A stretch of 64,000 nucleotides of DNA from Candidatus Binataceae bacterium (GTDB lineage Bacteria > Desulfobacterota > Binatia > Binatales > Binataceae), in assembly GCA_963722605.1 (NCBI GenBank), contig CAVRNO010000002.1:548090-612089 (forward strand), read 5' to 3'. Within the stretch, counting starts at the first letter, position 1, and each line of letters opens with the position of its first letter. Below the pieces are notes generated by a model. That model worked only from the letters and a program-made list of their open reading frames with translations, had not been told where the DNA came from and did not search any database. A program made the position numbers and the translations under genes. Below are positions 6,155 to 40,544 of the stretch, one piece after another.

Positions 6155-6156
6155 CG

Positions 6157-7479: not shown

Positions 7480-7496
7480 TCTTGCGATTGCCCTTT

Positions 7497-8702
7497 TTAG
7501 GCGCTGGCCGTGCGCACCCTGATCTCGGCTTCGCCGATCCGGAGCGCCTGACGAATTCCCCGTAGCGCCTGGCGGGTGCGATGTTCGTTCTCGATAAGCG
7601 CGAAGCGCACGAACCCGTCGCCGTCCTGCCCGAAGCCGATTCCCGGCGACACCGCGATCTTGGCCTCGGCCAGCAGAAACTTCGCGAACTCGAGCGAACC
7701 CATCGCGCGAAACGGCTCCGGAATCGGCGCCCACACGAACATCGTCGCCTTGGGTTTCTCCACCGGCCAGCCAGCCCGGTTGAGCCCGTCCACCAGCACG
7801 TCGCGCCGGCGCTGGTAGCGGGCGACGATCTCGGCGACGCAGTCCTGCGGTCCGTTGAGCGCCGCGATCGCGGCGACCTGCACCGGCGCAAACATCCCGT
7901 AGTCGAAGTACGATTTCAGCCGCGCCAGCGCCGCGATCATCTCGCGATTGCCGACCGCGAAGCCCACCCGCCAGCCGGGCATGTTGTAGCTCTTGGACAG
8001 GGTGAAGAACTCGACGCCGACGTCCTTGGCGCCCGCCACCTGCATCATCGACGGCGCCTTGTAACCGTCGAAGCACAAGTCGGCGTAAGCAAAGTCGTGC
8101 GCGACCATGATGTCGTTCTCGCGCGCGAACTCGACCACCCGCTGCATGAAGTGCAGATCGACGGTCGCGGTGGTCGGGTTGTGGGGGAAGTTCATGATCA
8201 GGAACTTGGGCCGCGGCCAGCATCGCGTCACCGCCGCCATCAATTCGTCGAAGAATTCCTCTCCGCGCCGAATGGGAACGCCCTGCACCTGCGCGCCCGC
8301 GATGATGCATCCGTACTGATGAATCGGATAGGTGGGCGTGGGTGCGAGCACCACGTCGCCCTGGTCGAGAATCGCCAGCGTCAGGTGCGCGATCCCTTCC
8401 TTCGATCCGATTGTGACGATCGCTTCCGAATCGGGATCGAGATCGACGCCGTAGCGCCGCTTGTACCAATCGCAGATCGCAAGCCGCAGCTTGTACACGC
8501 CGCGCGAGACCGAGTAGCGATGGTTGGCGTTCTTGGAGGCCGCCTCGATCAGCTTGGCCACGATGTGCGGCGGGGTCGCTTCGTCGGGATTTCCCATCCC
8601 GAAATCGATTACGTCCTCGCCGGCCCGCCGCGCCTTCAGACACAATTCTCCGATCGCGTTGAACACGTAGGGTGGCAGCCGTTTTATTCTTGGGAAATCC
8701 AT
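7497..8702 (-). CDS. pyridoxal-phosphate-dependent aminotransferase class I/II (AlaA/AspC-like)
   Basis: [15 protein letters not shown]-terminus, [16 protein letters not shown]-lysine region. It sits directly upstream of hom-thrC on the same strand. Confidence 0.85.
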
Positions 8703-9075
8703 TTGACCCTTGCGGTTGGCGATTATGCGCGGACTTCAGCGTCCGCAAAATACGCGAGCTATAAGTTTTAACGGACGCCCGCCGCCACTGCTAGTGTTGT
8801 GTCCTGCAAAAATCTTCAAAATGTTCTGGTACGACCAGCGAAGGGACTCTCTGGTCCGGTTCCCCCTTTACCGACTCGTGCGGCCAGCCAGGGACTCTCG
8901 GTTCCCCTTTCCGACGCGGAAAGGGGGCCAGGGGGATAGGACGGCGGCTTTCACAGGTGATTTTTGTGTTCCCCTTCCCCATTCTGTTTTGGGGAAGGGG
9001 CCGGGGTTAGGGCTTTGTTCTTCAATCGATTTACGGGACACGACACTAGTGGGCGCGTATCGCCCGCAATCCGGA

Positions 9076-10255
9076 TCAGTTCGCGGCGCTCGCCGGCGCG
9101 GCCTCTTGACGCCGGCGCGTCGCCCAATAGACGGGAGCTGCGCACACCGATATCAGCCCCGCGATCTGCCACGCGAAGGGTATCCCCGCGGTATCCGCGA
9201 TCCGCCCGCCAACCAGCAGCCCCATCGCGCCACCCATCGTCTGGAACGTGCTGTTGAACGACAGCAGCGTCGCGCGATTTCCCGCCTCGATCTGCTCGTT
9301 GAACCAGCTCTGCACCAGCGGCGTCATCGCCCCGGTGAACAGATTCATGACGAACAGCATCGCGAGCGAGACCACCGGCCGCCCGCCGAACAGCCCCGCC
9401 AGGAACAGCATCGCGCTCGTGCCGATAACCAGCATGCTGACGCGCGCGCGGCGCTGCGAATGGCTGGCCGGGATGCGCGCGCTTACCTCCGCGCCGACCA
9501 GCCGCGCCGCCGACAGAGCGCAATAGATCCAGCCGACGATCCACACGCCGACCCCGATGCTCTGGTTGAACATCACCGGCCATTCCATCCAGTACGGCGC
9601 CCACGCCGCAAAGGTGACTGCGCCCGCCACGCTCAGCATCAGGACCGTGTGCGCGCCCAGTCCGGCGCGGATGCCCGTGGCCAACGTTGGCGGCGACCTG
9701 GCGCGGGATCGCGGCGATGCTGACGTTGGTGGCGCGCGGACGCTCGTCGTGCATCAGGATTGCGCCGACCGCACCGCTGACCAGGTAGCCGGCCGCGCCC
9801 AGCAGCCACGGCCATGCGATATTGATGTTGGCGACGTAGGCGCCGATTATCGCCGAGCCCATGAAGCCGATCGTCGTCAGTTGCGAGATTCGCGAGAACA
9901 GGCGGTCCTTGAGCCCGTCGTATCCGGCGGCATCGAGCGCATCGACACCCCAGGCGTCGATCGCGCCGTTGCCGAAAGTCGTGCCGATACCGTCGATGCT
10001 CTCGGCGATGAGGAAGACGTAGTAATGATGCGCGAGGAAGTACAGGACGAAGGCGCAGACGCGCAGCGATGCGCCGAGCACATACGAGCGGCGCCTGCCG
10101 AGCAGATCGGCGAACGCGCCGGTGGGCACATCGGTCAGAAACAGGACGACGAAATACGTCGCCAGCACGCTGTTGGTCTGGAACTGGTTAAGCCCGCGCG
10201 AACGCAGAAAGATCGGATAGACGCTGAACAGAAAGCCGCCGGCGAACGAGTACAT
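9076..10255 (-). CDS. MFS transporter, apparent frameshift near 9690
   Basis: The N-terminal six-TM half lies in the 483 aa ORF frame (MYSFAGGFLFSVYPIFL...). The C-terminal half lies in ORF 9076..9684 (GLGAHTVLMLSVAGAVTFAAWAPYW...). The ATG at 10255 was chosen because a terminator-like hairpin lies at 10352..10390. Confidence 0.6.
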
Positions 10256-10351
10256 GCCCCACACCGCGTAGTAGCGGCGGATGATGTCGCGAATGGTCGG
10301 AGCATGCGGTCGTGCGGTATCCACGGAAATTTTCCACCCATTCAGCCGCGC

Positions 10352-10390
10352 AAAAAGAAAAAGCCCCGGGGCTCTCGCGCGCCCGGGGCT
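10352..10390 (-). terminator. hairpin terminator-like element
   Basis: A 9 bp GC stem (AGCCCCGGGG/CCCGGGGCT). On the minus strand it is followed by a T-rich tract (TTTTCTTTTTG, rc of 10351..10361). It lies in the divergent MFS/ubiB intergenic region. Confidence 0.4.
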
Positions 10391-10621
10391 TTTCGGAGCC
10401 AAGTCTCGATGTCCGTCTCAATTCAGGAGGACCCTCATTGAATTGGGGACGCGACGTACATCACCACTCGGCCTCATGCGCAGAGAATAATCGAGCGGAC
10501 GAACGCCAGTCAAGCCGGTGCTCGACGGAGCAAGCCGGGCGCTCTGTTCTCAGAGCCGCACGCATCGCATAGGATTTAGGCTTCGCGCGACGAGAGTGGA
10601 ACCCGGCGGCGAAATCCTCGC

Positions 10622-12025
10622 ATGAGCAACCCGAGCATCGAGCGCAGCTTCGATTTTCCTGCCGGCGTGGCCGAGCCCGGACTTGCGACGCGGCTGTGGC
10701 GCTTTTGGAACATGGTGTGGCTCGCGGTGCGCGTGTACGCGGGCTACAAAGGCACCCAGCTCTGGACGCGCTTTGTCAGCGATCGCAACAAGGCGGAACT
10801 CTATCGCCGCCAGGATCTTCGCGCGGCGCAAGCTCTCAATCGCACCGCAATCCGGCTGGAAGGCCTGCTGATCAAGGCATGCCAGTTCATCGCAACTCGC
10901 GCCGACGTGCTGCCCGACGAATGGGTATCCACCCTCTCCGGCCTGCACGATCGCGTCCCGCCGCGGCCGTTTGCGATGATCCGCGAACAGATCGAGCGCG
11001 AACTCGGCCGCCCGCTCGCGGCCGTTTACGCCGAGTTCGATCCCGCGCCGATTGCGTCGGCCTCGCTCGCGCAGGTGCATCAGGCGCGCCTTCACGACGG
11101 CCGTCGATGCGCGGTCAAGGTGCAGTATCCGGGAATCGACGGGATCGTCCGCGCCGATCTCCGTAACATGACGATGGTGTTGCGATGGCTCGCGATCCTC
11201 GAGCGTGACTTCGACTATCGGATCCTGATGCGCGAGGCGCTCAAGTACATCCCGATGGAGCTGGACTTCGATCACGAGGCCGGCAACTCGGAAACGATGC
11301 GCCGCAACTTCGCCGCCGATCCCGGCGTGATCGTCCCCGAGGTCTATCGCGAGTTCACCACCCGGCGCGTGCTCACGATGGAACTGGCCGAAGGAATCAA
11401 GGTCACCGATATCGGCGCGCTCGAGCGTGCGGGGATCTCCAAGCACGCGGTCGCGCAGAAACTGATCGAAATTTTCTGCGACCAGGTCCTGCGCGACGGC
11501 TTTTTTCACGCCGATCCGCATCCCGGCAACATCCTGGTTCAGCCCGGCCCGCGGATCGTGCTGCTCGACTTCGGCCTGGCCAAGGATTTCCCGCCCGAGT
11601 TCCGCGACGGCATCGTGCGGCTGACGTTTTCGATCCTTGCGTCGAATCGCGATGGAATCGCCGCCGCGTTTCAAGAGCTGGGCTTTCGCACGCGCAACGG
11701 CAATCCCGACACGCTGCTGGCGTTTTCCGACGCGTTTCTCGGCAGCACCATCAAGTCGAACAAGGCTTACGCGGACAAGGACATGGTCGAGAAATTCTCC
11801 GAGGAGCTTCCGCGCGCGATTCGCGCCAATCCCGTGGTCGAAATCCCGGCCGACGTCTTGCTCGTCGGCCGCATGATGGGTCTGCTGAGCGGACTCGGCA
11901 AGACACTCGACAGCCAGGTCGATCTGTTCGCGACGATCATGCCGTATGCGCAACGCCTCATGCTGGCGCAGCCGGCCCGCGCGAGCGAGCTGCCCGGCGT
12001 GGGCCTGGCCGCAACGCCGCGCTGA
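10622..12025 (+). CDS. ubiB: ABC1/UbiB family atypical kinase
   Basis: ADCK/ABC1 motifs (ASLAQVHQARLHDGRRCAVKVQYPGI, FFHADPHPGNILV, LLDFGLAKD). Confidence 0.85.
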   Translation: MSNPSIERSFDFPAGVAEPGLATRLWRFWNMVWLAVRVYAGYKGTQLWTRFVSDRNKAELYRRQDLRAAQALNRTAIRLEGLLIKACQFIATRADVLPDEWVSTLSGLHDRVPPRPFAMIREQIERELGRPLAAVYAEFDPAPIASASLAQVHQARLHDGRRCAVKVQYPGIDGIVRADLRNMTMVLRWLAILERDFDYRILMREALKYIPMELDFDHEAGNSETMRRNFAADPGVIVPEVYREFTTRRVLTMELAEGIKVTDIGALERAGISKHAVAQKLIEIFCDQVLRDGFFHADPHPGNILVQPGPRIVLLDFGLAKDFPPEFRDGIVRLTFSILASNRDGIAAAFQELGFRTRNGNPDTLLAFSDAFLGSTIKSNKAYADKDMVEKFSEELPRAIRANPVVEIPADVLLVGRMMGLLSGLGKTLDSQVDLFATIMPYAQRLMLAQPARASELPGVGLAATPR

Positions 12026-12125
12026 CAGACGCGAAATCCTCGCGCGCATCGCCGATTGTCGCTTGTCGATTGATCTGCGCCGCGAGGTGGACGGCCCTCC
12101 CCGCCAGTTATATCGTGCCTAGGTT

Positions 12126-12959
12126 GTGAACAACGAAATCGAACAGGTTGCGCTCCGCGCCGCGCGTGCCGCCGGCAGAATCCATCTCAAACGGCTCAGC
12201 CGAATAACGATAAACCGCAAGTCGAACTCGATTGATCTTGTCACCGAGGCCGACCGCGAATCGGAAGCCGCAATTATCGAGGTGATCCACCGCGCCTTTC
12301 CCACCCATGCGATCCTCGCCGAGGAAAGCGGCGCCAGCGCGCATCAAAGCGACCATCGATGGATTATCGATCCGCTCGACGGCACCACCAACTTCGCCCA
12401 CGGCTACCCGCAATTCTGCGTATCGATCGCGTACGAACGCCGCGGCCGCTTGCAATTCGGCGTGGTCTTCGACGCGCTGAGAAAAGAATGCTTCATCGCC
12501 CAGCGCGGACAGGGCGCGCGCTTAAACGGCAAGCCGATTCGCGTCAGCACCACACCGAACCTCTGCGCCGCGCTGCTGGCGACCGGATTCGCCTACGATC
12601 GGCGCGAGCGCCGGCGCTTCTATCTATGCTTCTGGGAAGAAATCATGGCGCGCGTCCAGGGCGTGCGCCGCACCGGGTCAGCCGCGCTCGATCTCGCCTA
12701 CGTCGCTGCCGGACGCACCGATGGATTCTGGGAGTTCGGGCTGCGCCCCTGGGACGTGGCGGCCGGCGCAATCATCGTCGAGGAAGCACGCGGGCGCGTG
12801 ACCAATATGGACGGCTCCGAGCTTGACCTTGCCGGCGGCAATATCGTGGCGACCAACGGCCGGCTGCACGAAGACCTCATCGAAGCGATTGCCCAGGCGC
12901 GCCCGGAAGCCGACCGCCGCCAGGCCGAGATGCTTCGCGAGACCAAGGCCTCAGCCTAG
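12126..12959 (+). CDS. suhB: inositol monophosphatase family protein
   Basis: IMPase motifs (WIIDPLDGTTNFAHG, DLAYVAAGRTDGFWE). The start is GTG (VNNEIEQ). Confidence 0.85.
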   Translation: MNNEIEQVALRAARAAGRIHLKRLSRITINRKSNSIDLVTEADRESEAAIIEVIHRAFPTHAILAEESGASAHQSDHRWIIDPLDGTTNFAHGYPQFCVSIAYERRGRLQFGVVFDALRKECFIAQRGQGARLNGKPIRVSTTPNLCAALLATGFAYDRRERRRFYLCFWEEIMARVQGVRRTGSAALDLAYVAAGRTDGFWEFGLRPWDVAAGAIIVEEARGRVTNMDGSELDLAGGNIVATNGRLHEDLIEAIAQARPEADRRQAEMLRETKASA

Positions 12960-13024
12960 AAATACCTGCTTGATTTTCCGGGCGCGCCTCAGGTGAGCGC
13001 GCAGATTCGCCGCGCGCCCCGCGG

Positions 13025-13825
13025 CTAGCGGCGCGCGATGAGCATCCCGGTATCCTTGCTGATTCGAATTTCGCCGTGCGCCGCGATTTCATTTTCGAGA
13101 TACCGCCGCAGGCCGGCAAGCTGTTCGTCGCTGACTCTGCTGCGCACCCGCATCGAGCAGATATAGTCCATCAACGGCGCAGCTTCGGTTACAACCAGCG
13201 AGTCGGGGTAGCGTTCGATTTGCACATCGCCGAAAGCCGCGCGCATGTACGTCGCGCCGCTCTCCAGCCCGAATCGCGCGATTGCCTCCGTCATTCGCGG
13301 AACCGAAAGAAAGCGCGCCGCAAGCTCGTCGATCTCCCGCATGTTCCCCGCCCCCATCGTGGCCGCATAGCAAAACCCCGACGGCTTGAGCACGCGCCGA
13401 ACCTCGCCAAGCGCGCGTGGAATGTCGGGCACATGGTAGAGCATGTGATTGGCGATCACCGCGTCGAACGATGCGTCGCGAAACGGGAGCGCCTGCGCGT
13501 CGGCCAGAGCGAAGATAAACGGATGGCCCAGCCGCGCGAGATTGGCGCGCGCTTCGCGGATCATCCCGTCCGACATGTCGGTCAGAACAACGCGCCATCG
13601 CGGCGGAACCTGCACCGGGCTGCGCCACAATATGCCGGTGCCGCAGCCGAGCTCGAGTACGCTCGCGTTTTCGGGAATCCGAAAACAATCGAACATCCAG
13701 CGCATCAGCCCGTAGCGATTGGTGCTGAAGCGATGATGCAGCCGTATCCGCGCCGACAGCTTGGAGCCGTCCTTGTATTGCTCGCGCAGGCGCCGTGCGG
13801 AATCGGTATCGTTGTCTGCCGCCAT
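13025..13825 (-). CDS. class I SAM-dependent methyltransferase
   Basis: VLELGCGTGILW motif I and LKPSGF post-II region. Confidence 0.7.
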   Translation of the reverse strand: MAADNDTDSARRLREQYKDGSKLSARIRLHHRFSTNRYGLMRWMFDCFRIPENASVLELGCGTGILWRSPVQVPPRWRVVLTDMSDGMIREARANLARLGHPFIFALADAQALPFRDASFDAVIANHMLYHVPDIPRALGEVRRVLKPSGFCYAATMGAGNMREIDELAARFLSVPRMTEAIARFGLESGATYMRAAFGDVQIERYPDSLVVTEAAPLMDYICSMRVRSRVSDEQLAGLRRYLENEIAAHGEIRISKDTGMLIARR

Positions 13826-13924
13826 CGCCGCGATGCTGGCGCGTGATTACTCTTCCGTCAATCAGTCAGGCTTTCTTGCCAGCCGCGATTCCCTGCTATA
13901 GTGCTTGGCTGTGCCGCACCATTC

Positions 13925-13996
13925 GCCCCGGTAGTGAAAAGGACATCACGGAGGTCTCCGGAACCTCAAGTCCGGGTTCGATTCCCGGCCGGGGCA
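13925..13996 (+). tRNA. tRNA-Arg (anticodon CCG)
   Basis: I folded the cloverleaf by hand. The acceptor stem is GCCCCGG/CCGGGGC with U8 and an A73 discriminator. The D arm is GTGA-AAAGGACA-TCAC. The anticodon arm is GAGGT-CTCCGGA-ACCTC, with U33 before CCG. The variable loop is 4 nt. The T arm is CCGGG-TTCGATT-CCCGG. CCA is not encoded, and a T7 run follows. Confidence 0.85.
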
Positions 13997-14039
13997 TTTT
14001 TTTGAAGATTCGACTCGCGTTTTTTCCCGGTTTCGATGG

Positions 14040-14246
14040 TTGGCCGCTTCGTCCGACGCGGAGACCGCAAGCCGTGCGAGAGTAGAATTTTTCAACGATC
14101 CCACCGCTTTTGAGAGTTGTAAACTTACAGTGGGTAGGTAATCCTTACTGTTTGCTCTATCTATGAGACTCTTTCAGACTGCTTATGCATGTTTTAGTAT
14201 CCTATATATCTCATGGCCCCCCTAGCCTTGCTTCAAGGTGTAATCA
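14040..14246 (+). promoter_or_regulatory. strongly AT-rich (~35-40% GC) boundary/promoter region downstream of tRNA-Arg
   Basis: Sequence composition contrasts with the ~67% GC background. It lies immediately upstream of ORF 14247. Confidence 0.4.
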
Positions 14247-14930
14247 GTGACACGATCTCCTGCGATGAGAGCGGAGACGCAAGACCAGCTGATTCCAGTG
14301 CCGAAAGAGGAGTGCGAGGTCCTCGATCTGATTCGAGAGGATCACGAACTGATCGAGCGCCTCCAGATAACCCCCGACGAGCTGGAAGCGCTATCGAAAT
14401 GCGCGATGTTTGGAACCCTGACCTGCAAGCAGCATATGCTTGCCATCTTGCGCCAGATTCGCGAGGCAGGCGGCCCCGCCGCGGGCGGCCCGGCGATCGC
14501 TCAGACGCCGCTCTTTCCTGAACCGGCTGTTCCGGAGGAAAGGGAAGGAGTTCCCCTTCCAGACTGCCGCCGCATGCTGGTTCGTCTCGCTGGCGACGCC
14601 GTATCCGAGCCGGGTTCGCTGGAGAGTACGGTTCGCCGCCGCGTCCCCGAGCAGTTAGGGATTCATTTCTGGCTGATCGTCCTGGTCGCAGGGCTGGCGT
14701 GGAACTTTATGATCGCGATATCACGCTGGCGCAACAACTTTCTGACCAGCATCGGAATGCCCGGCGCCCAGGCTGCTCCTTCGACTGCGTGGTACAGCAA
14801 CCTCAACCAGACCTATATTCTGCTCTGGGGCGAGGTTCTGATCGTGGTAGGCATCGCGCTTGTGATGTACTTCAAATCCCGCAGAGGCTACCGCCGCCTC
14901 AAAGTCAGACCGCGGCGAAGGTGGCTTTAG
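14247..14930 (+). CDS. hypothetical membrane protein (soluble N-domain, Pro/Ala linker, 2 C-terminal TM helices)
   Basis: ORF with an acidic N-domain (EECEVLDLIREDHELIERL) and hydrophobic segments (FWLIVLVAGLAWNFMIAI, ILLWGEVLIVVGIALVMYF). GC ~58%, below the local average. Confidence 0.5.
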   Translation: MTRSPAMRAETQDQLIPVPKEECEVLDLIREDHELIERLQITPDELEALSKCAMFGTLTCKQHMLAILRQIREAGGPAAGGPAIAQTPLFPEPAVPEEREGVPLPDCRRMLVRLAGDAVSEPGSLESTVRRRVPEQLGIHFWLIVLVAGLAWNFMIAISRWRNNFLTSIGMPGAQAAPSTAWYSNLNQTYILLWGEVLIVVGIALVMYFKSRRGYRRLKVRPRRRWL

Positions 14931-14989
14931 CCGGTCTGCACCTTTTCTTCCATTTCTTCCGGTAGCTACGCGGCGACCGCGCGCGGAAC

Positions 14990-15850
14990 TCACGATAAGC
15001 TGCGCCAAAATTCCTGCAGGAGCACGCTCATCAGCCGGGGATGCTCTTCGGGAAAGAACAGCTTCGCGCGCGGCACCATGATCACCCGCCGCACGCCCCC
15101 GAAATTGTGCTTGAGCCAATCCACCGACTTGAGGTCGAAAAGGGGATCGGCGTCGCCCCAGACAACCTGAGCCGGCACGGTGAGTTGCCGCAGTTGCGGA
15201 GCGATCGAAGCCGTCACCCGCACGTTGGCGAGACTGGCAAAGCGCCGCACATCGAGGCTGCGTTGCTCCGACGACAGCAACGGCTCCAAGTACGTCCTGA
15301 ACGCCTCGTCGGGGATGCGCTCGGGATCTTCATAGACTGAACTGAACGCCTGGCGCGCGGCCGCCGGCGACTCCATCGCCGCGTTCAGCAGCGCGATTAC
15401 CGACGGGTCCGCGAACTGGCCGAGCACCGATTCCAGCATTGCATTGGGCCACAGGTCGTGGACCTCGCAGTTGGTCAAGGTGAGGCTGCGCAGCCGCGAC
15501 GGATATCGCGCCGCGAACACCTGGCTGATACCACCGCCGGTGTCGTTGCCGACCAGGTCCACCTGGGGCAACCCCAGCCGGTCGATAAAAGCGGCTATCA
15601 TCCTCGCCTGATGGTCGAATTCGAGCTCCTGACCGGCGGCGACTTCGGTGTAGCCCAACCCCATCAGGTCCAGCGCGATACATCGCCGCGTCGCAGCGAG
15701 GTCATCCAGCGCGCCGCGCCAGGCGAAGCCGTTTAAGGGAAAGCCGTGAACGAACAGGGCCGCCGGCCCGGCGCCATTTTCGACGTATGCGATTCGGCCG
15801 AACGCGGTCTCGGCGAATTTCCGCGCCTGATGGAACTCCGCTGCCTTCAT
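14990..15850 (-). CDS. alpha/beta hydrolase fold protein (haloalkane dehalogenase/epoxide hydrolase-like)
   Basis: HGFPLNGFAWR and nucleophile-elbow-like VGNDTGGG motifs. The likely start is MKAAEFHQ. Confidence 0.75.
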   Translation of the reverse strand: MKAAEFHQARKFAETAFGRIAYVENGAGPAALFVHGFPLNGFAWRGALDDLAATRRCIALDLMGLGYTEVAAGQELEFDHQARMIAAFIDRLGLPQVDLVGNDTGGGISQVFAARYPSRLRSLTLTNCEVHDLWPNAMLESVLGQFADPSVIALLNAAMESPAAARQAFSSVYEDPERIPDEAFRTYLEPLLSSEQRSLDVRRFASLANVRVTASIAPQLRQLTVPAQVVWGDADPLFDLKSVDWLKHNFGGVRRVIMVPRAKLFFPEEHPRLMSVLLQEFWRSLS

Positions 15851-16294
15851 CGCTGAATTGCCTCCTGCCGCGGCAGGGCTGGACCCTGCCCCGGTATTAA
15901 AACAAATCGGCACCGCCGCGGGATACGGGCGGAGTTTACCCTGAACACTCGGAAGGGACCTGTTAAGTGGAACAGACCGGGATGAGAACCTCGCGGATGT
16001 TGCTTATGCGGAACGGAGTATTGTCAACTGAAAGTGTTGAGGAATGGTTAAGCGCCTGAAGAGACGGCGCTATTGGAGCGTCTGTGGCGAAGACGAAAGG
16101 CAAAACTTGAGGTCGTCGGGAAGTCTCCCGGACTCAAATCTGGGCGTAAACTGTGTGTTTGCAACCCGCATGCCTTGGTGCCAGTATGCACCGGATTTCA
16201 AAATGGAAATTCCGGATTCCGGTTCAGTATGTTGCTCTCGAATCATTCTCGCCGTTTGGCTTGAACGGACACCTGCTTAGAGGAGGACTCATCC

Positions 16295-17911
16295 ATGGCT
16301 GTAGCGAAGGGTATGACCGATCCCGCCACTCCGGCTAGCGTGATGGTGGAGGACAAAGCACCAGAACCCATCTGGGATCCTACGCTTGGGATCTCCGTTT
16401 CCGCTCCGGGACCGGGCACCCCGAAGAATCGGCTGGTCGCGATCGGAGATTCACTCACCCAAGGATTTCAAAGCGGGGCGATCTTCAATACGCGTCTATC
16501 CTACCCGATGATTATCGCTTGGGAGATGGGCTGGGACGCTCAGCTAAGGGTTCCGAGTTATGCCGGGTTCGGAGGGCTCCCGTTCAATATTGAGTATATC
16601 GTTCGTCATCTCGAGCAGCGGTTGGGGCCCGAAACCAAATGGTGGGAGGTACCGCTTGCCTATTTCGAACTACGGCAGATGCTGGCGGAGATAGAAGACT
16701 GGTGGGAACGGGGGCCGGGCTCTCAAGATCCGCGCGCAGTCGGGATCAAGCACAACTTGGCCGTGTGGGGCTGGGATTTGCGTGACACCCTGGCCCGAAA
16801 CTACACCGTCGAGAACGCGCTAATTGTAAAACCTCACGATCCCTTCTTCCTTCCCATGGTTTCGAATGCCAACGAGCGAACGGCCCTTCGTGTGCTCGAT
16901 ACCGCATTCGACAACGGCCAAGCGCTAAATCCTCTGGAAGCGGCGAGAGTGCTGAGTGATGAGGGTTCAGTTGAATCATCCACGGGCGACGGGATCGAGA
17001 CGCTGATTGTGATGCTGGGAGCTAATAATGCGCTGGGCACCGTGGTCCAGCTAAAGGTAAATTGGAGCAAGGCTCCGGCTTACCAGAACCTTCAGCAGAA
17101 ATCCGCGTTCACGGTTTGGGATCCTGACCATTTCGCTGCCGAGTTGAACCTGGTGGTGGCCGAGGTAAAGAAGATCCGCGCCCGACACGTAATCTGGGGG
17201 ACGGTTCCGCACGTCACAATCGCGCCAATCGCGCGAGGCGTCGGCGGAGCAAAGGTGCGGACCGGCTCTCGCTATTTCCCCTACTACACTCGCCCGTGGA
17301 TATCCGACAGCGATTTCGATCCTTCGGACGATCCATATATTACAGGCGCTCAGGCTCGGGCAATCGACAGTGCGGTCGATCAGTACAATCAGCAAATTGT
17401 AAACGCAGTAAGAGCCGCACGAAGCGGCGCTGCGGGAGTACCGCCGCGCGATTGGTATGTGCTCGACGTCGCCGGCTTGCTCGACCGGCTGGCGTCGCGA
17501 CGTTACCTGGACGACCCTGCGGCGCGGCCAGCGTGGTGGACCCCGTACGAATTGCCGCACGCATTGCAGCAGCTGGCGCCGGTGCCTGATTCGCGGTTCT
17601 TCACGTCCGGGCCGCAAGGGAGATTGGCGGGCGGACTGTTTGCTCTGGACGGAGTGCATCCGACGACGATCGGATACGGAATAGTGGCGCAGGAAATAAT
17701 CAACATCATGCAGTTGGCGGGAGTTCAATTCTTCATGGGAGACGGTAACACGCAGCGGCGGGGGCCCGTACGAGTCGATTTTGATCGGCTCATTCGCGAC
17801 GACACTCTGATCAGTAGTCCGCCGTCTTCAGTGAAGTCCGATCTTGCCGTGATTGGGTGGCTCGACGAAAGGTTCGAATGTCTGAAGAACCTGTTCAGCA
17901 AGAAAAGTTGA
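16295..17911 (+). CDS. large SGNH/GDSL hydrolase family protein (538 aa)
   Basis: Block I VAIGDSLTQG and block V DGVHPT. A strong RBS (GGAGGA) sits 7 nt upstream. No signal peptide. GC is lower than the host (~58%). Confidence 0.7.
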   Translation: MAVAKGMTDPATPASVMVEDKAPEPIWDPTLGISVSAPGPGTPKNRLVAIGDSLTQGFQSGAIFNTRLSYPMIIAWEMGWDAQLRVPSYAGFGGLPFNIEYIVRHLEQRLGPETKWWEVPLAYFELRQMLAEIEDWWERGPGSQDPRAVGIKHNLAVWGWDLRDTLARNYTVENALIVKPHDPFFLPMVSNANERTALRVLDTAFDNGQALNPLEAARVLSDEGSVESSTGDGIETLIVMLGANNALGTVVQLKVNWSKAPAYQNLQQKSAFTVWDPDHFAAELNLVVAEVKKIRARHVIWGTVPHVTIAPIARGVGGAKVRTGSRYFPYYTRPWISDSDFDPSDDPYITGAQARAIDSAVDQYNQQIVNAVRAARSGAAGVPPRDWYVLDVAGLLDRLASRRYLDDPAARPAWWTPYELPHALQQLAPVPDSRFFTSGPQGRLAGGLFALDGVHPTTIGYGIVAQEIINIMQLAGVQFFMGDGNTQRRGPVRVDFDRLIRDDTLISSPPSSVKSDLAVIGWLDERFECLKNLFSKKS

Positions 17912-18154
17912 GCGGAGCAGATTTCGGCGATGAGGGAAATGGAGGAAAGGAGAAGCGTCTGCGGAATCCATTGGGAGAATGGCATTCCCGGGCGTTGCGT
18001 GCCCGCGCGAGGCGCGAAACCGACACCTCCCGGCGCTGCTGGAAACACCGTGGACCAAACCCGGCGTCGAACCTTGCGCGAGGCAGCGATTCGATCTATG
18101 CGGGCCGCTAAAATCGGAGAGTTAGAATGGAAATTCCGGTAAAGAAGTTCAGTT

Positions 18155-19090
18155 ATGTCTGGAGCCGTTGGCTTTACGCCTATCTACGCGCCCGGCGGGT
18201 CGACCGGCAAGGGAAGGTTTCCGAGAATGACCTCAGGTAAGCCAAAAACACTTTGGGAACGCATCGATCCTGGAACCATCGTTGCTTTACTCGCTTTGGT
18301 GCTTACGCAGCTACCGTCAGTGAGCGTGATGTGGGTGGCGGTTTTCAAACCACGGCTTGTGACAGTATCCTTTCCGAATAGTTCATTCTATGCGGATCAA
18401 ACGCTCGGCCACAGCTCAGTCGTGATCCAACTTTCGCTTCATAACGATGGTGGGCGGGTCGCAACAATTGGGCAACTCAACGCTATCCTGAGTGGACCCA
18501 ACGGCTTCTTGGTGGCCCTCAAGGCTGATGAGTATGTAGGACTCGAGAACCAAACTTCGATTCCCCTTGCCCATCCGATGTCATCGATTGTACTCAGGCC
18601 TGGCAACCGCTGGGACGCGATGGTCGGTTTCCTAGAGAAGATGTCTGACCAAGCGCAGTCCGACGTCGCTCGACTCCAAGGCGCCATGTTGCAGCCAGCC
18701 TTTAGCGCGCCATCTTTCACACCACAGACGCCAGTACCGCCGGCCAAACCAATTGTGAGCGAGGCAATTGACATGTTTAATCGCTCATTCAAGTGGAAAG
18801 CCGGGACTTACCAGCTATTCGTCCAAGTCAATTCGGAAGACGACGACAAGCAAATCGGACTGAACGGGGTTGAGTTCACGCTATCCCCGGAAGGCGTTGA
18901 GCAAATGCATTCAGTGGTTAATGGATACCAGTTCGGTAGGCTGAACAATCCGGGCAATCCAGCGACCAGCGCGCTGGTGCGCGCGCATGTCCTGAGCGCC
19001 AACGACGCGCTGGCCAAGTTTCGCGCGCTTCCGACGCCTTCCAATGCTGAATCTGGCGATATGCCTCTACAGCCAGCCAGCGGCATGTAA
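18155..19090 (+). CDS. hypothetical protein with an N-terminal TM anchor
   Basis: ORF with a hydrophobic segment (IVALLALVLTQLPSVSVMWVAVF). I did not recognise a domain. ~53% GC. Confidence 0.45.
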   Translation: MSGAVGFTPIYAPGGSTGKGRFPRMTSGKPKTLWERIDPGTIVALLALVLTQLPSVSVMWVAVFKPRLVTVSFPNSSFYADQTLGHSSVVIQLSLHNDGGRVATIGQLNAILSGPNGFLVALKADEYVGLENQTSIPLAHPMSSIVLRPGNRWDAMVGFLEKMSDQAQSDVARLQGAMLQPAFSAPSFTPQTPVPPAKPIVSEAIDMFNRSFKWKAGTYQLFVQVNSEDDDKQIGLNGVEFTLSPEGVEQMHSVVNGYQFGRLNNPGNPATSALVRAHVLSANDALAKFRALPTPSNAESGDMPLQPASGM

Positions 19091-19602
19091 TTACCCTCGC
19101 ATGAGAAACCGCGTTTAGTTGATCAAGGCCGTCCGGGGCGAAGAGGCGCGGGTGAGGGTGGCGACCCTTCAGGAGCCTCGGAGCCGCTCTCCTCAGTAGA
19201 ATAAGGCGCGAGGAATATCCTAGAAGATTGCCTTTCAATGTTTATGTCCATTATTTCCGTGACGCGGGACCCTGCGGCGCTTACTGACGGGCTAGCAGAC
19301 TATGCGGCGGCGTGATTGCCCCAAGCGCTACAGCCTTCACGCTGTTCGCTGCCCACGGGCGAATAGTTCGAGCTTGGGCAGGGCCTGGTACATGCGCTAA
19401 ATCATTTCGTAGAGGAGTTGGGGTCCTTCACTGCGCGCCGCAGAACCCTCGCCTACCGGCCGCAAGGCGGCCGGCCTCCTGTCCCGTGAAGTAACGGGCG
19501 AGGTGAGAATCGGACTCGCACACGGCGTAGAAAAGGATTCGGGGTCGCTGTGCTTCGGTTGGGATGACCCAAGAAACGCAGACCGCGCGGGCGGAGTTAC
19601 TA

Positions 19603-20403
19603 TGGAATATCGAATCACACCGGGCAGATTGGAAATCGGCGAGTTCTCGCTCTACTACGAGCGCGTCGGCGCCGGCCCGCCGATCGTCTTCATGCACGGG
19701 CTGGGCGGCAGCCATCTCTCATGGTGGCAGCAAGTGCCCTACTTCATGCGATCGTTCGAATGTATCACGGTTGACCAGCGCGGCTTCGGCCTTTCGCCCG
19801 ACCCCGACGGCCATTTCAATCGCGCGCATGCCGAGCGATCTCGCCGCCCTGCTCGACCATCTTAAGATCGATACGGCCGTGCTGGTCGGGCAATCGATGG
19901 GCGGATGGACGATCGCCGGCTACGCGCTCGAGCATCCCGAGCGCGTCGCGGCGATGGTGATGGCGGATACACCGGCGGGAATTTTCACGCCTGAGATGAC
20001 GTTCGAACGTCCGCGCGAACCGCTCGCCGTCGATGCGACGCCACCGATCGGGTCGCTGCCGACCTACGCCGCCGATTATTTTTCGCGGAGCCCCGAGATG
20101 GCGTTTCTGTACGACGAAATCCGGATTCATGGCGCGCGGCCTCCGGCCGACGCGGGCATGCGGCTAATCAGCCTGCGCTACGATCTGGACGCGGTGAAGC
20201 GACGCCTGACGATGCCGGTACTGTGCATGGTGGGCGAGGAGGACACGCTTATCAGGCCCCAGATCGTCAAGGCGCTGGCATCGGCGCTCCCGAATTCGCG
20301 ATTGCGCACGGTCCCCGGCAGCGGCCATTCGATCTATTTCGAGAAGGCCGCGGTCTTCAATCAACTGGTGCGCGATTTCCTCGTCGAGATCGGGCAGGGG
20401 TGA
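19603..20403 (+). CDS. alpha/beta hydrolase, apparent frameshift near 19818
   Basis: The N-terminus (MEYRITPG...FMHGLGGSHLSWWQQ) is in ORF 19503..19865. The remainder (GQSMGGW nucleophile elbow, ...PGSGHS) is in ORF 19564..20403. The stop TGA is the centre of a palindromic repeat. Confidence 0.65.
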   Translation, partial: WNIESHRADWKSASSRSTTSASAPARRSSSCTGWAAAISHGGSKCPTSCDRSNVSRLTSAASAFRPTPTAISIARMPSDLAALLDHLKIDTAVLVGQSMGGWTIAGYALEHPERVAAMVMADTPAGIFTPEMTFERPREPLAVDATPPIGSLPTYAADYFSRSPEMAFLYDEIRIHGARPPADAGMRLISLRYDLDAVKRRLTMPVLCMVGEEDTLIRPQIVKALASALPNSRLRTVPGSGHSIYFEKAAVFNQLVRDFLVEIGQG

Positions 20404-20458
20404 CCCCTGCACTCAGTATTAGGGCCGCGCTCCGTTGTCGCGCGCGGCCCCTGCCGCG
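20394..20458. repeat. REP/MITE-like nested palindromic element, copy A
   Basis: GCAGGGGTGACCCCTGC palindrome, then CAGTATTAGGGCCGCGC-TCCGTTGTC-GCGCGCGGCCCCTGCC. Shares core motifs with copies at 22993, 25290 and 54605. Confidence 0.7.
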
Positions 20459-20514
20459 GGCGAGGCATAGATGATGAAACGAAATAGCGCGGAATTCGTC
20501 GATTTGTTGGGTGA

Positions 20515-21326
20515 GTGACGCGGGACTATAATCAAGGCGTTATGGGTCGTATCGCAAATGCCCTGGCGGCCTTCGGGCTGGCGGCGGCTATCGCGGGATT
20601 GGCCTCCTGCGAGCCGGTGCAGAATCCTTATGGAACCGCCGGTGCGGCGAAAGTGGCGCCTGTGGGGATCTCGAGCCGCTCCAATTCGAGTCTGCCGCCG
20701 CCGTCGAGCGCGGGCACAGTTGCCGGCGGCACGATCGATTCGCCGGACAGCCAGGGTCTGTCCGATTATCTCAAGCATCACTCGCTGCCGCTGGTCGGGG
20801 CGCAAGTCGTCACCAGCCCGAGCGGCGGCAAGCAGGTAATTCTGTTCGGTTTCGTCGCAAGCGAGTTCGGCAAGGCTGACGCCGAGCAGAAGGCTCGCCG
20901 CTATCTGAACGATCCGTCGATGGTGGTGGACAACCGGATCAAGATCAGCCCTGAACTGGGCGGGGGCGGATCGACGGGCAACGGAGTTCCGTCCGCGAAT
21001 GGGGCGGCGCTGACGGCTCCGATCCGGGCGACGCGACCGGCTCGCTCCAGGATTATGAGAACAACGAACCGCCCGCCGCGCAGGCCTACCAGCAACAACG
21101 GCAGTATCAGCAGTATCAGCAATACAACAGCGCGCCGCCCAGCATGCTGAGCACCATCCTTCCGCTGCTGCTCGGCGGAGGCGTGTCGATGGGCAGCGGC
21201 GGCTTCGGCGGAGGTACGGGTGGATTCAGTTCCGGTTACGCGCCGGGTTACGGCAGTTACGGCTATCCAACTTATCCGCCGCCGATGCCGGGTTCCGGGT
21301 TCGGCGCGCCGGGATACCCCTACTGA
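20515..21326 (+). CDS. BON-domain lipoprotein with Q/Y-rich and G/Y-rich C-terminal tail; apparent frameshift near 21000
   Basis: Lipobox (LASC). BON-like segment (LKHHSLPLVGAQVV...VILFGFVASEFGKADAEQKARRYLNDPSMVVDNRIKIS). The tail (QAYQQQRQYQQYQQY...GGGVSMGSGGFGGGTGGFSSGYAPGYGSYGYPTYPPP) reads in the +1 frame and joins ORF 21144..21326. Confidence 0.5.
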
Positions 21327-21362
21327 TTGGGCCGCAGGCCGTCGATCGATCGGCCGCTCGTT

Positions 21363-22157
21363 CTATCTCGCCAGCTTGAACCGCTCGCCCAAGAACACCT
21401 GGCGCACTTCGTCGCTGGCGACGATGTCGCGCGGCTTGCCCTCGAACAAAATCTTGCCGGCGTGAATGATATAAGCGCGATCGATGATCGACAACGTCGC
21501 GTGCACGTTGTGATCCGACATGAGCACCCCGATGCCGCGCTCTTTGAGATAAGTTACGACGCGCTGAATCTCGATGACGGTGATCGGATCGATGCCGGCG
21601 AACGGCTCGTCGAGGCATAGGTACACCGGATCGAGCACGAGCGCGCGGGTGATTTCGACGCGGCGGCGTTCGCCACCGGAGACCACGCCCGCCTTGGACT
21701 TGGCCAGTTTGGCGATTCCGAGTTCGTCGAGCAGCGAATGAAGGCGGGCGTAACGCTCCTCTTCGGTAAGCGGCAGGGTTTCGAGCACGGCCAGCAGATT
21801 TTGCTCGACGGTCAGCTTGCGAAAGACGCTTGGCTCCTGCGGCAGGTAGGAAATCCCGCGGCGCGCGCGCTGGTAGAGCGGCAGAGTCGTGATGTCCTCG
21901 CCGCTGAACATCACTCGCCCGTGGTCGGGCTTGAGCAATCCGACCAGCATGTAGAAGGTGGTGGTCTTGCCCGCGCCGTTGGGTCCGAGGAACCCCACCA
22001 CCTCGCCCGGCTTGACGACTACGTTGACGTTGTCGACGACCGCGCGGCCGCCGTATACCTTGGTCAGGCCTTCACCGCGAAGGGCGAGCTTTTCGGCCTT
22101 TTCAGCCGTGGTGTTGTCGCCGATCTCGCCCGATTTAATGCTTCCGACGTTTGCCAT
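21363..22157 (-). CDS. lptB: LPS export ABC transporter ATP-binding protein
   Basis: Walker A (GPNGAGKTTTF), signature LSGGERRRVEI, and an LptB-type C-terminus (VRQVFLGERF). Confidence 0.85.
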   Translation of the reverse strand: MANVGSIKSGEIGDNTTAEKAEKLALRGEGLTKVYGGRAVVDNVNVVVKPGEVVGFLGPNGAGKTTTFYMLVGLLKPDHGRVMFSGEDITTLPLYQRARRGISYLPQEPSVFRKLTVEQNLLAVLETLPLTEEERYARLHSLLDELGIAKLAKSKAGVVSGGERRRVEITRALVLDPVYLCLDEPFAGIDPITVIEIQRVVTYLKERGIGVLMSDHNVHATLSIIDRAYIIHAGKILFEGKPRDIVASDEVRQVFLGERFKLAR

Positions 22158-22337
22158 TTTCGAACACCGCTTGGGTGACCATCCCAGAACTTATCGGCTT
22201 TGATCGGGATTTGGAACGTGTCGGTGCAATTAGCCGCGCGCCGTTCAAACACGATCGGGCGGCGCGCCGCGGCCGCTGTTATCGATGCGATCCAATTGCG
22301 GCTGTGCTAAATTGCGGCGCGATCGAGGAGGATCCCA

Positions 22338-22625
22338 ATGGTCAAAGGATTATGTTTCGCGAGCGGCGCCATCTTCGGAATCTTGCTTAGCTGTGCCGCG
22401 TGCATGCAGAGCCCGGCGTACAGCGGCGCCGGCTATTACGGTCCTCCTCCCGCACCTCCGCCCGGCAGCCATCCCGCAATCTCGCAAGCGATGAACGATC
22501 TGCAGCATGCGCGCTACGTGCTGCAGGCCGAGGCCGCAAGCGATTTCCGAGGGCATAAGGCCAACGCCGTCGGCTTCATCGACAATGCGCTCGGCGAATT
22601 GCAAATCTGCATGACGATGCCGTAG
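22338..22625 (+). CDS. small putative lipoprotein
   Basis: Signal peptide with lipobox (ILLSCAAC), Pro-rich linker. Confidence 0.4.
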   Translation: MVKGLCFASGAIFGILLSCAACMQSPAYSGAGYYGPPPAPPPGSHPAISQAMNDLQHARYVLQAEAASDFRGHKANAVGFIDNALGELQICMTMP

Positions 22626-22699
22626 CCGCGGCGCACGCGGCTGCTCCCGGGCGCGCTCCGAAGCGACCGGCGATCGGCGCTTTTGCGCGGCGCGATGGG

Positions 22700-23002
22700 A
22701 TGCTACTGGATAGGATCGTGGCCAACGAAAACGAATATGACAGCGAGCGCTTTCCCGGAAATTTCTACCAGGGGATGATTCTCACGCTCGACCGCGCCCG
22801 CGGCCGTGGCGTGGTGCGCTCGCATAGCGGCAAGGAGATCCCGTTCGAGTTTCCCTTCGTGGCCGTAGTGGGCGCGCCACTTGGCGGCAAGATGCCGGGG
22901 ATCGATCTGATCCGCGAAGGCGATATCGTGGGCTTCGATGTCGGCTGGACCTCGAAGGGACTGCGCATCACGACGCTCCATCCTCGGCAGGTGCAGGGGT
23001 GA
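22700..23002 (+). CDS. hypothetical protein (100 aa)
   Basis: ORF only. It ends ...RQVQG with the TGA at 23000..23002 inside repeat copy B. Confidence 0.4.
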   Translation: MLLDRIVANENEYDSERFPGNFYQGMILTLDRARGRGVVRSHSGKEIPFEFPFVAVVGAPLGGKMPGIDLIREGDIVGFDVGWTSKGLRITTLHPRQVQG

Positions 23003-23104
23003 CCCCTGGCCGTTGGCGGCGGCAGCGCAGTATTAAGCCGTTGGCAGGGGCCGCGCGCGACAACGGAGCGCGGCCCTAACGGTGGGTGCAGGGCTCAGCC
23101 CTGC
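22993..23104. repeat. REP/MITE-like composite palindromic element, copy B
   Basis: GCAGGGGTGACCCCTG core. It also has CAGTATTAAG, an inverted copy of the copy-A arm (GGCAGGGGCCGCGCGCGACAACGGAGCGCGGCCCTAA), and a terminal GTGCAGGGCTCAGCCCTGC palindrome. Confidence 0.7.
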
Positions 23105-23739
23105 TGCTGCTTGCGCTGGTACATCAGCCACTGCCTGACGCCCAAGGGGTAGAGCTCGCCCATGATTTCGTAGCCCTTGGAACTGTAGAACGCGACGTTG
23201 GCCTCGGTCCCGGTCTCGAGGTAAACGCCGGCTATCTCAGGCCGCACCAGTGCCTCCAGCGCGAGCCGGTCGAGCAACGCCTTTCCGTAGCCTTTGCCCT
23301 GAAAATCCGGATCGACCCCGAGGGTTTGCAGATACAGATGCGGCTCCTTGGGATGGTGCTGTGCAAGCACACCGACCATATTCATCGCGCGGACCATCCC
23401 GCCCCATCCGACTCCCCGAATCAACCGCGGCAACTGTGGCAGCCCGGCGGTGATCAACCCAAGCACGCCTGAATGGCCCACACCTTCGGTGGCCGCGGCG
23501 GCAACCACGCGTCCATTATGGACCACGCCGAAGACCGGCTGTCCGTTCCGACGCTCCACACCCAGCTGCGCGCGAAACATATCCGCCAGGTGCTCGGCGC
23601 GCGCGACCGGCTCGGTAATATCCGGAAGGATCGCCTTGAAGGCCGGGTCGTTGATGAAGGCGCGGCCGAGCGCGACGGCGGCCTGCTCGTGCTGCTCGGG
23701 GTACAGGCTGGTTACGATCGGTTTTCCATTTTCAGGCAT
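23095..23739 (-). CDS. GNAT family N-acetyltransferase
   Basis: Acetyl-CoA binding motif (LQTLGVDPDFQGKGYGKALL). The likely start is MPENGKPIV. It ends ...QQQG with the stop (TCA on +) at the centre of the GCAGGGCTCAGCCCTGC palindrome. Confidence 0.7.
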   Translation of the reverse strand: MPENGKPIVTSLYPEQHEQAAVALGRAFINDPAFKAILPDITEPVARAEHLADMFRAQLGVERRNGQPVFGVVHNGRVVAAAATEGVGHSGVLGLITAGLPQLPRLIRGVGWGGMVRAMNMVGVLAQHHPKEPHLYLQTLGVDPDFQGKGYGKALLDRLALEALVRPEIAGVYLETGTEANVAFYSSKGYEIMGELYPLGVRQWLMYQRKQQQG

Positions 23740-23817
23740 TTCTTTTTTTCCTCGATTCAATCCGACGGCCTGGTGAGAGCGCGCCCGACTGCGTCGCGCC
23801 ATCCGGCGAGCAATTCT

Positions 23818-25261
<1,444 letters not shown>

Positions 25262-25289
25262 CGTCGTATTCTCCCGCGCCAATGTTACA

Positions 25290-25367
25290 GCAGGGGTGAC
25301 CCCTGCACCCAGTATTAAGGCCGCCCGCCGTTGGCGGGCGCGACCCCTGCCAACGGTTTAATACTGC
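25290..25367. repeat. REP/MITE-like palindromic element, copy C
   Basis: GCAGGGGTGACCCCTGCACCCAGTATTAAGG...CCCCTGCCAACGGTTTAATACTG. The CAGTATTAA / TTAATACTG arms are inverted. It lies in the divergent glpK/gshA intergenic region. Confidence 0.7.
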
Positions 25368-25482
25368 GCCGCCGTCGCTCACGGCCCCCCCGCCCGCCTT
25401 GTGCTTGCCTCGTATGTTTGCTGACGCCATTATACCCGCTTGGCGGAGCCTCTTCTCAGGCAGTCGCGCTTGGCTTTGATTC

Positions 25483-27813: not shown

Positions 27814-27816
27814 GCG

Positions 27817-40532: not shown

Positions 40533-40544
40533 ATTCTCTATCCC

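Follow-up and report, generated by a model that had tools for sequence, protein, structure and literature searches.

Lipolytic serine hydrolases of the GDSL/SGNH set, i.e., the Photobacterium sp. J15 GDSL esterase (8hwp), the Legionella lysophospholipase A PlaA (8a24-8a26), Pseudomonas ChoE, the EstA passenger domain, and the fungal CE16/AnAE acetylesterases, span 270-330 amino acids (aa) and share the four catalytic blocks GDS, G, GxN, and DxxH; most are secreted or surface-exposed. Prophage morons and superinfection-exclusion proteins are small, membrane-anchored products of genes that lie beside a repressor, an integrase, Mor, or the end of a tail module, often oriented opposite to their neighbours. 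Integrative islands associated with tRNA genes are strain-specific tracts of lower guanine-plus-cytosine (GC) content that carry an integrase and att sites and are contiguous with the tRNA gene. Here, we describe a locus that bears comparison with each of these, located in a 64-kb window (i.e., the whole stretch of DNA analysed, 64,000 nucleotides [nt] from a Candidatus Binataceae bacterium, contig CAVRNO010000002.1), in which a low-GC segment of ~3.67 kb encodes a 538-aa SGNH hydrolase and a membrane protein termed orf311. We consider it likely that this segment is a small, horizontally acquired accessory piece of DNA in a variable spot of the chromosome of Candidatus Binatus, an uncultured soil bacterium of the Binatota, and that it is not an island integrated at the nearby tRNA-Arg(CCG) gene.

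Segment boundaries and origin

The segment and its two cargo genes are as follows.

15899-19573, no strand assigned: strain-specific foreign segment of ~3.67 kb, from blastn breakpoints and alignment to the closest relative, L172
16295-17911, plus strand: SGNH/GDSL-type serine hydrolase (538 aa), no signal peptide or transmembrane (TM) segment, member of a large unnamed family
18227-19090, plus strand: orf311, single-pass membrane protein of an unannotated family (287 aa from ATG 18227; 311 aa from ATG 18155)

Related loci were fetched with the upstream inositol monophosphatase (IMPase) gene (12126-12959), which returned 80 loci; in 66 of these (L007-L072), named mostly Candidatus Binatus/Binataceae or carrying older labels such as "delta proteobacterium", the IMPase protein was 70-95% identical to that of the window. 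The closest relative, L172, was reached through an exact-protein look-up of P0123 (orf227, the membrane protein encoded after the tRNA gene, 99% identical), and is 97.2% identical to the window over 4271-15885 (11.6 kb) and 97.1% identical over 19585-28353 (8.8 kb). A second close relative, L174, is 92-96% identical and arranged as in L172. Gene presence and absence were scored by tblastn and breakpoints by blastn.

Homology to seven relatives ends at 15867 and picks up again at 19602, while homology to L172 ends at 15885 and picks up again at 19585; alignment with L172 by eye puts the junctions near 15899 and 19573. Both the SGNH gene and orf311 are absent from this locus in all 66 Binatus loci, in which the flanking genes are conserved, as well as in the two closer relatives, L172 included. 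The composition of the segment is also deviant. Its GC content is 0.57, compared to a mean of 63% for the 64-kb window, and the SGNH gene and orf311 have GC contents at third codon positions (GC3) of 0.653 and 0.603, respectively, versus 0.77-0.82 for seven neighbouring native genes. Across the whole sequence, 3.57-kb windows average 0.632 GC (standard deviation 0.021), and values as low as 0.56-0.57 are reached only by the SGNH block and by one other region, at 38-42 kb. An earlier reading of this DNA, made from its letters and open reading frames (ORFs) and referred to below as the sequence-only reading, had described a lower-GC block at 16000-19300, which we find at 56.6% GC with 300-nt windows within 0.53-0.60; it had also considered a small cargo cassette, which agrees with our finding that the low-GC block with the SGNH gene and orf311 is devoid of mobility genes and was not seen in any of the relatives examined.

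Absence from close relatives, conserved flanks, and deviant composition thus mark 15899-19573 as an acquired segment, albeit one without the features of an insertion sequence, transposon, or miniature inverted-repeat transposable element. There is no convincing target-site duplication, nor are there convincing terminal inverted or direct repeats, at the segment junctions; the segment encodes neither an integrase nor a transposase domain, and the small ORFs of its non-coding arms include no transposase-like ORF or coding remnant.

What the segment replaces is evident from the layout of the locus in relatives. The UbiB, IMPase, methyltransferase, and tRNA-Arg genes are conserved, orf227 is next in most relatives, and to its right the conserved genes are an alpha/beta-fold hydrolase (ABH2), a 211-aa protein, and LptB. 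The interval between orf227 and ABH2 holds no genes in L010, L013, and L040, and holds a minus-strand alpha/beta-fold hydrolase plus a 202-aa TetR-family regulator in L008, L009, L014, L016, L019, L020, and L026. At the position of the segment itself, TetR is intact in six relatives, persists as a remnant in L172 and L174, and has left no trace in the window; L172 holds 219 bp in place of the segment, comprising the first ~15 and last ~25 codons of TetR. Given this L172/L174 layout and the presence of TetR in relatives, 15899-19573 constitutes a strain-specific replacement of the TetR slot.

From these arrangements, the ancestral order would have been tRNA-Arg, orf227, the minus-strand alpha/beta hydrolase, TetR, and the second alpha/beta hydrolase. 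TetR would then have decayed to a ~200-bp remnant in a sub-lineage including this strain, after which, in this strain alone, the remnant interval would have been swapped for ~3.67 kb of lower-GC DNA, probably by illegitimate or homology-facilitated recombination. Such a history is one of ordinary strain-level accessory-gene turnover, with no unusual mechanism in evidence.

An opposite polarity, in which Binatus had the segment ancestrally and all sampled relatives have lost it, draws on the deletion-prone nature of the locus, TetR having been lost in L172 and L174 and the hydrolase-TetR pair being missing from L010, L013, and L040. This would however call for many separate, precise deletions, spread over 66 loci and several phylogenetic depths, and a different gene, TetR, occupies exactly that position in relatives. 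Moreover, GC3 of the cargo is 0.12-0.2 under that of native genes, and the closest SGNH homologues are on contigs of 53-58% GC that share no DNA with the window beyond the gene. We regard an ancestral segment as extremely unlikely.

An assembly chimera was also weighed, as the source is a contig of a metagenome-assembled genome (2.05 Mb for the contig of P0001), the nearby ABH2 gene is frameshifted by one base in the manner typical of long-read errors, and the sample of the closest SGNH homologue, ERZ25039465, is near that of L172, ERZ25039467, in ENA. Synteny with relatives nevertheless resumes exactly on both sides of the 3.7-kb insert, making a chimera unlikely, and the best foreign match reaches only 74% nt identity, too low for the segment to have been pasted in from a known co-occurring contig. 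The chance of a chimera is, in our estimation, exceedingly remote.

Relation to the tRNA gene

The sequence-only reading had treated the whole interval from the tRNA gene to 19500 as a tRNA-adjacent islet. Its native left part consists of the following features.

13925-13996, plus strand: tRNA-Arg(CCG), native, the only tRNA found in the window by ARAGORN; Rfam 63 bits
13997-14264, plus strand: AT-rich intergenic region, conserved and collinear in relatives, not foreign
14265-14930, plus strand: orf227 (221 aa), native membrane protein with two C-terminal TM segments

The tRNA gene was correctly placed by that reading, and its sequence is 97-100% identical in nearly all relatives that have the gene. 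The genus does use it as an integration hotspot, as seen from L033, in which a tyrosine integrase (12011-13168) directly follows the same tRNA-Arg(CCG), and from L046, with three copies of the tRNA 3' 22-mer (7514-11060). In other relatives, the DNA between the tRNA and orf227 is expanded by 1-5 kb encoding a varied cargo, with luciferase-like monooxygenase, BON, hemerythrin, and Metallophos proteins among the products.

In the present genome, the integration site beside the tRNA is empty. The reading's remark that no integrase or clear att repeat is visible was borne out: no integrase domain occurs in any ORF of 13997-21150 (Pfam and NCBIfam, with small ORFs inspected), and the downstream partial copy of the tRNA 3' end for which it had proposed to search is not present in the 64 kb, the 20-mer and the 27-mer each occurring once with up to 3 mismatches allowed. 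At 15888-15902, 13 of 15 nt match the 5' end of the tRNA; we rejected this as chance, the repeat being short, present in two copies, and related to the wrong tRNA end.

Two GC dips are present in the flagged interval, i.e., the spacer after the tRNA and ~15900-19500. The first is indeed AT-rich, as the sequence-only reading held for 14040-14246, though at 46% GC instead of 35-40%, and against a background of 63% and not 67%; by sub-interval, GC is 45.6% for 13997-14246, 46.4% for 14040-14246, and 41% for 14090-14246. In seven relatives, 304-309 nt separate the end of the tRNA from a conserved anchor within orf227, at 0.44-0.50 GC, and the spacer is collinear in L172, L174, L010, L040, L013, L028, and L052, with near-invariant blocks across relatives such as GTTTTAGTATCCTATATATCTCATG. 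Its constant length, low GC, and near-invariant blocks in seven relatives identify it as a conserved native intergenic region and not an integration scar; most simply, it would represent the promoter and 5' leader of orf227. No Rfam match was found in the spacer. In scans of the non-coding parts, Rfam returned the tRNA alone, the sigma-70 promoter search gave 0 sites, and terminator-like sites were no commoner than chance.

An island spanning 13997-19500 that had inserted at the tRNA-Arg(CCG) 3' end and since degraded, with loss of its integrase and att sites, would draw support from the hotspot behaviour of this tRNA in L033 and L046, from the 1-5 kb of extra DNA between tRNA and orf227 in many relatives, and from the low GC found both directly after the tRNA and in the SGNH block. 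Like a tRNA-associated island, the segment is within 2 kb of a tRNA used in relatives, is lower in GC, and is strain-specific. Synteny, however, largely refutes the notion. Both orf227 and the 300 nt that follow the tRNA are conserved in relatives, in collinear order, the interval 13997-15885 being 85% identical at the nt level to L010, L013, and L040, and 97% to L172. Foreign DNA begins 1.9 kb away from the tRNA, past two native genes, and because these genes intervene the cassette is not tRNA-adjacent; its boundaries instead fit the TetR slot. Unlike such islands, the segment has no integrase or att site and is not contiguous with the tRNA, there is no tRNA repeat in the 64 kb and no attR, and the segment takes the place of a resident gene at a site distinct from the tRNA. 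The same gene content at this tRNA in relatives, which the sequence-only reading had named as evidence that would go against it, is therefore found for 13997-15885, to the detriment of the island, and is not found for 15899-19573. We judge a degraded tRNA island to be very unlikely. The locus offers a worked example of how a GC dip beside a tRNA is insufficient to call an island, since here the dip immediately following the tRNA corresponds to a native, conserved spacer.

The SGNH hydrolase

The first cargo gene begins 7-8 nt after a GAGGAGG motif and encodes a protein with no hydrophobic segment (Kyte-Doolittle maximum over 19 residues of 1.37). Together with the motifs and fold described below, these features confirm the large SGNH hydrolase with a strong ribosome-binding site and no signal peptide that the sequence-only reading had proposed. 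Among 32 aligned family members, (i) block I GDS(L) corresponds to G51-D52-S53-L54, with G51, D52, and S53 invariant and L54 nearly so; (ii) G91, G93, G94, G242, N244, and N245 of the oxyanion-hole blocks II/III are invariant; and (iii) block V DxxH corresponds to D452-G453-V-H455, with D452, G453, and H455 invariant. The predicted catalytic triad is S53-D452-H455, with putative oxyanion residues G93/N244, G93 being a provisional choice of catalytic Gly within block II.

An AlphaFold model built on the 32-sequence alignment (predicted local distance difference test [pLDDT] 84.8, predicted template-modelling score 0.90) displays the three-layer alpha/beta/alpha SGNH fold. The Foldseek check advised by the sequence-only reading for the ORF at 16295 likewise returned an SGNH fold, matching PlaA at E = 5e-5 with ~210-250 of 538 residues aligned; beyond this core, the residues form helical insertions and a conserved N-terminal extension. 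The window protein thus has the four catalytic blocks in common with lipolytic GDSL enzymes but differs from them in length (538 aa versus 270-330 aa), in sequence (13-19% identity), in its large helical insertions and conserved 45-residue N-terminal extension, and in having no signal peptide. Motifs and model together suggest a serine esterase of the lipolytic GDSL type; with a fold nearest to those enzymes, cleavage of acyl or acetyl esters would be the most likely activity.

At least 2,473 homologues make up the family, of ~525-565 aa and ~58-66% identical to the window protein, from Cyanobacteria, Acidobacteriota (Pyrinomonadaceae), Actinomycetota, Binatota, and metagenome bins, and labelled "hypothetical" almost throughout. 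A look-up of the window's own protein returned no record, and searches of NCBIfam, PADLOC, and PDB sequences gave no match. The nearest homologues are 76-79% identical at the aa level and 71-74% at the nt level, the latter within the coding sequence only; outside the gene, their contigs, of 53% and 58% GC, have no DNA in common with the window. One by-product of this analysis is thus a very large and strongly conserved family of SGNH proteins, ~535 aa long, with no signal peptide and no Pfam or NCBIfam name.

Across ~80 loci, no conserved neighbour gene of the SGNH gene was found, the largest neighbour cluster being 5 proteins from 4 loci. Recurrent neighbours are functionally unrelated and come from sets of related loci (peroxidase, deacetylase, methyltransferase, DDE transposase). 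An apparent enrichment for peptidoglycan-related neighbours (PG_binding_1, 6/149) was set aside, as it appears partly due to such sets. Among viruses, there was no confirmed match in IMG/VR, none in INPHARED, and nothing significant in a BFVD fold search, and plasmid matches were to distant paralogues only (25-35% identity).

The orf311 family

For the second cargo gene, the sequence-only reading had described a TM-anchored protein of unknown family. One N-terminal TM segment is indeed present, but the start is likelier to be ATG 18227 than ATG 18155, in view of alignment with relatives and a GGGAAGG motif upstream. A word-indexed search found two close homologues only, of which the better, P0121 (56% identical), sits at one end of a prophage that has Mu-type head genes, with a CI-like repressor (HTH_3 + Peptidase_S24) on one side and host genes on the other. 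With a full HMMER profile search, we recovered 136 cluster representatives of ~250-280 aa with the same layout, i.e., an N-terminal TM helix with AL.LSQLPPI, N.GG and PGE.WS in a beta-rich region, and a C-terminal YKYG.GI. Profile searches gave no Pfam, PHROG, or PDB match for the family, and a collection of isolate phage genomes gave no match to it.

Family members occur on five IMG/VR contigs, with four in the opposite strand to both flanking genes. Neighbours on these contigs include the following.

L175 (IMG/VR): Mor transcription activator
L176 (IMG/VR): tail gene gpD and a DUF4062 protein (8789-9937)
L178 (IMG/VR): phage integrase
L179 (IMG/VR): AAA_14/DUF4143 ATPase (5709-7292) and DNA ligase

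Genes for DUF4062 and AAA_14/DUF4143 proteins are often found in variable or defence-type regions. One chromosomal member is near a PIN toxin-antitoxin pair. This recurrent accessory placement in viral and prophage contigs is typical of phage accessory (moron) genes. Family members resemble prophage morons and superinfection-exclusion proteins in being small, membrane-anchored, and situated beside a repressor, integrase, Mor, or tail-module end, as well as in their frequent orientation opposite to neighbours. They differ in that no prophage surrounds orf311 in the window, and in having no sequence or profile similarity to named exclusion proteins or PHROGs. Since the family recurs as a moron-like gene in temperate phages, orf311 may plausibly act at the cell envelope, and by analogy it could plausibly serve in exclusion or modify the envelope. 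The analysis hence also yields an unannotated membrane protein family of ~250-280 aa in accessory slots of temperate phages.

Are the two cargo genes a unit?

Both genes are preceded by a copy of an exact 14-nt repeat.

16202-16215, plus strand: AATGGAAATTCCGG, copy 1, 80 nt upstream of the SGNH start codon
18126-18139, plus strand: AATGGAAATTCCGG, copy 2, just upstream of the orf311 start codon

The repeat, which contains a GGAA-N-TTCC palindrome, is suggestive, but no more, of a candidate shared regulatory site. When the block was dinucleotide-shuffled 1000 times, 30 of the shuffles contained some exact 14-mer direct repeat (~3%), and AATGGAAATTCCGG is not present upstream of the homologues in L005, L006, and L087. 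Linkage of the SGNH gene with orf311 was seen in this window only.

A cargo devoted to phage resistance could nonetheless be envisaged, in which the SGNH hydrolase would act as a lipolytic suicide/abortive-infection effector or as a receptor modifier, orf311 would provide prophage-derived superinfection exclusion, and the 14-nt motif would coordinate their expression. In keeping with this, all three of the closest SGNH homologues are in defence-like neighbourhoods, with a Gabija-like OLD-TOPRIM ATPase and a UvrD helicase near the first, and KAP NTPase plus McrBC, and an AAA_16 NTPase, near the second and third, respectively. The company kept by orf311 relatives (CI-like repressor, integrase, Mor or gpD, and in one case the PIN toxin-antitoxin pair) fits as well, as does the repeat shared by both genes. 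However, six proteins of the region, those of the SGNH gene and orf311 included, match no PADLOC-DB v2 family at E <= 0.1. Among 149 neighbours from the ~80 SGNH loci, no PADLOC model drew more than 3 proteins (a count made without a formal background comparison), and the 25 models listed were all for DNA methyltransferases, with 3 members each. The recurrent SGNH neighbours are unrelated metabolic genes, the family was not found in IMG/VR or INPHARED phages, the two cargo genes are not linked elsewhere among the loci compared, and the 14-mer could be a chance event. A literature search on SGNH proteins and anti-phage defence returned nothing relevant. We therefore view a phage-resistance cargo as unlikely. 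It is more doubtful still that the SGNH family as a whole represents an unrecognised, mobile, single-gene stress or anti-phage effector, e.g., an intracellular lipase that would kill or protect the cell, paired here with a prophage-derived exclusion factor or sensor. Biochemical or phage-challenge work on either cargo family would be reasonable.

Points weighing against the proposed acquisition

The interpretation favoured above, namely horizontal acquisition of a small accessory segment encoding an SGNH esterase and a phage-associated membrane protein, must be set against several observations that count against it or blur its details. With respect to origin, (i) the relatives were covered over +/-10 kb around the locus, and the SGNH gene and orf311 could thus sit elsewhere in those genomes; (ii) a donor with near-identical DNA was not found, the best protein match being 79% identical, and we infer both the donor and the mechanism of transfer; and (iii) the right ~130-160 nt of the segment have a native GC content of 0.636 and contain an element also found in Binatus.

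19441-19511, plus strand: 72-nt element, 83-92% identical by blastn to copies in L031, L011, and L020

With a right end of native GC that holds this Binatus element, the right junction may be near 19440, and part of the segment is possibly Binatus-derived. The copies in L011, L020, and L031 occupy an intergenic position unrelated to this locus. The element is GC-rich, has hairpin potential, and lies upstream of ABH2; it could be mobile or regulatory.

With respect to the cargo, (iv) Pfam GDSL models score below their gathering thresholds on the SGNH protein, at 18.6 versus 23.6 bits for PF00657 (Lipase_GDSL) and 17.9 versus 32.9 bits for PF13472 (Lipase_GDSL_2); these matches span block I alone, and a minority of family members have precomputed PF00657 or PF13472 matches. 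Furthermore, (v) the enzyme is probably cytoplasmic, a placement read solely from its having no recognisable signal peptide, and its putative substrate, going by the modelled fold, would most likely be acyl or acetyl esters of a lipid-like or small molecule. Finally, (vi) structure prediction for orf311 from a three-sequence alignment was unusable (pLDDT 31.8).

Neighbouring genes

The genes that frame the segment, beyond those listed above, are as follows.

14990-15850, minus strand: alpha/beta-fold hydrolase (286 aa), Pfam Abhydrolase_1 at E = 6e-25, GC3 0.81
19602-20403, plus strand: ABH2, native alpha/beta-fold hydrolase, frameshifted in the window by an extra G at 19833

The sequence-only reading was right that a membrane protein with no family match follows the tRNA spacer, though the start of orf227 is most likely ATG 14265, matching the starts of its homologues, and not 14247. 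Its TM segments cover residues 131-155 and 182-205, and no Pfam, NCBIfam, or PADLOC match was obtained. Of 226 homologues, all that bear an organism name are from Candidatus Binatus, and most relatives have the gene after the tRNA, with 43-79% identity at the aa level. By this distribution, orf227 is a native gene core to the genus, and not island cargo as had been supposed.

That reading's native-looking alpha/beta hydrolase holds up by GC3 and Pfam match, with the start moved to ATG 15850 from 15913 upon comparison with L009 and L172. The gene is present in ~10 relatives and absent in others (e.g., L010, L013, L040); i.e., it is of native composition and belongs to a hydrolase-TetR pair that is variable within the genus. 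The N- and C-terminal fragments of TetR are located at L172:11622-11840 and L174:2082-2272. With TetR reduced to fragments in this sub-lineage, both flanking hydrolase genes are left without their presumed repressor. The 219 bp of L172 also contain a palindrome, CATACTAACAGTATG, which we infer to be a putative TetR operator.

In L172, ABH2 is intact (266 aa), with its ATG corresponding to 19602 in the window. The extra G at 19833 was placed by alignment with this 97%-identical relative, and the Pfam Abhydrolase_1 match covers only the C-terminal portion of the called ORF; either the gene has recently become a pseudogene or the extra base is a sequencing error of long reads. Downstream, the 211-aa ORF (20515-21150) matches no family and has a hydrophobic segment at its N-terminus. 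Over the C-terminal half, it is unlike the 270-aa homologue in L009, and tblastn matches in relatives span ~140-170 residues; another frameshift or a variable low-complexity tail may be responsible.

Minor observations

The second low-GC block of the window, at 38500-41130 (0.53-0.58 GC), contains minus-strand ORFs (38527-39966, 39963-40532, and 40545-41126) that resemble TadG/TadE-type Flp-pilus assembly proteins by eye. An intergenic repeat of ~62 nt occurs at 20394-20455, 23043-23104 (inverted), and 25290-25351; it is also multi-copy in L010, L013, L040, and L172 and has the appearance of a REP-like (repetitive extragenic palindromic) element of Binatus genomes.

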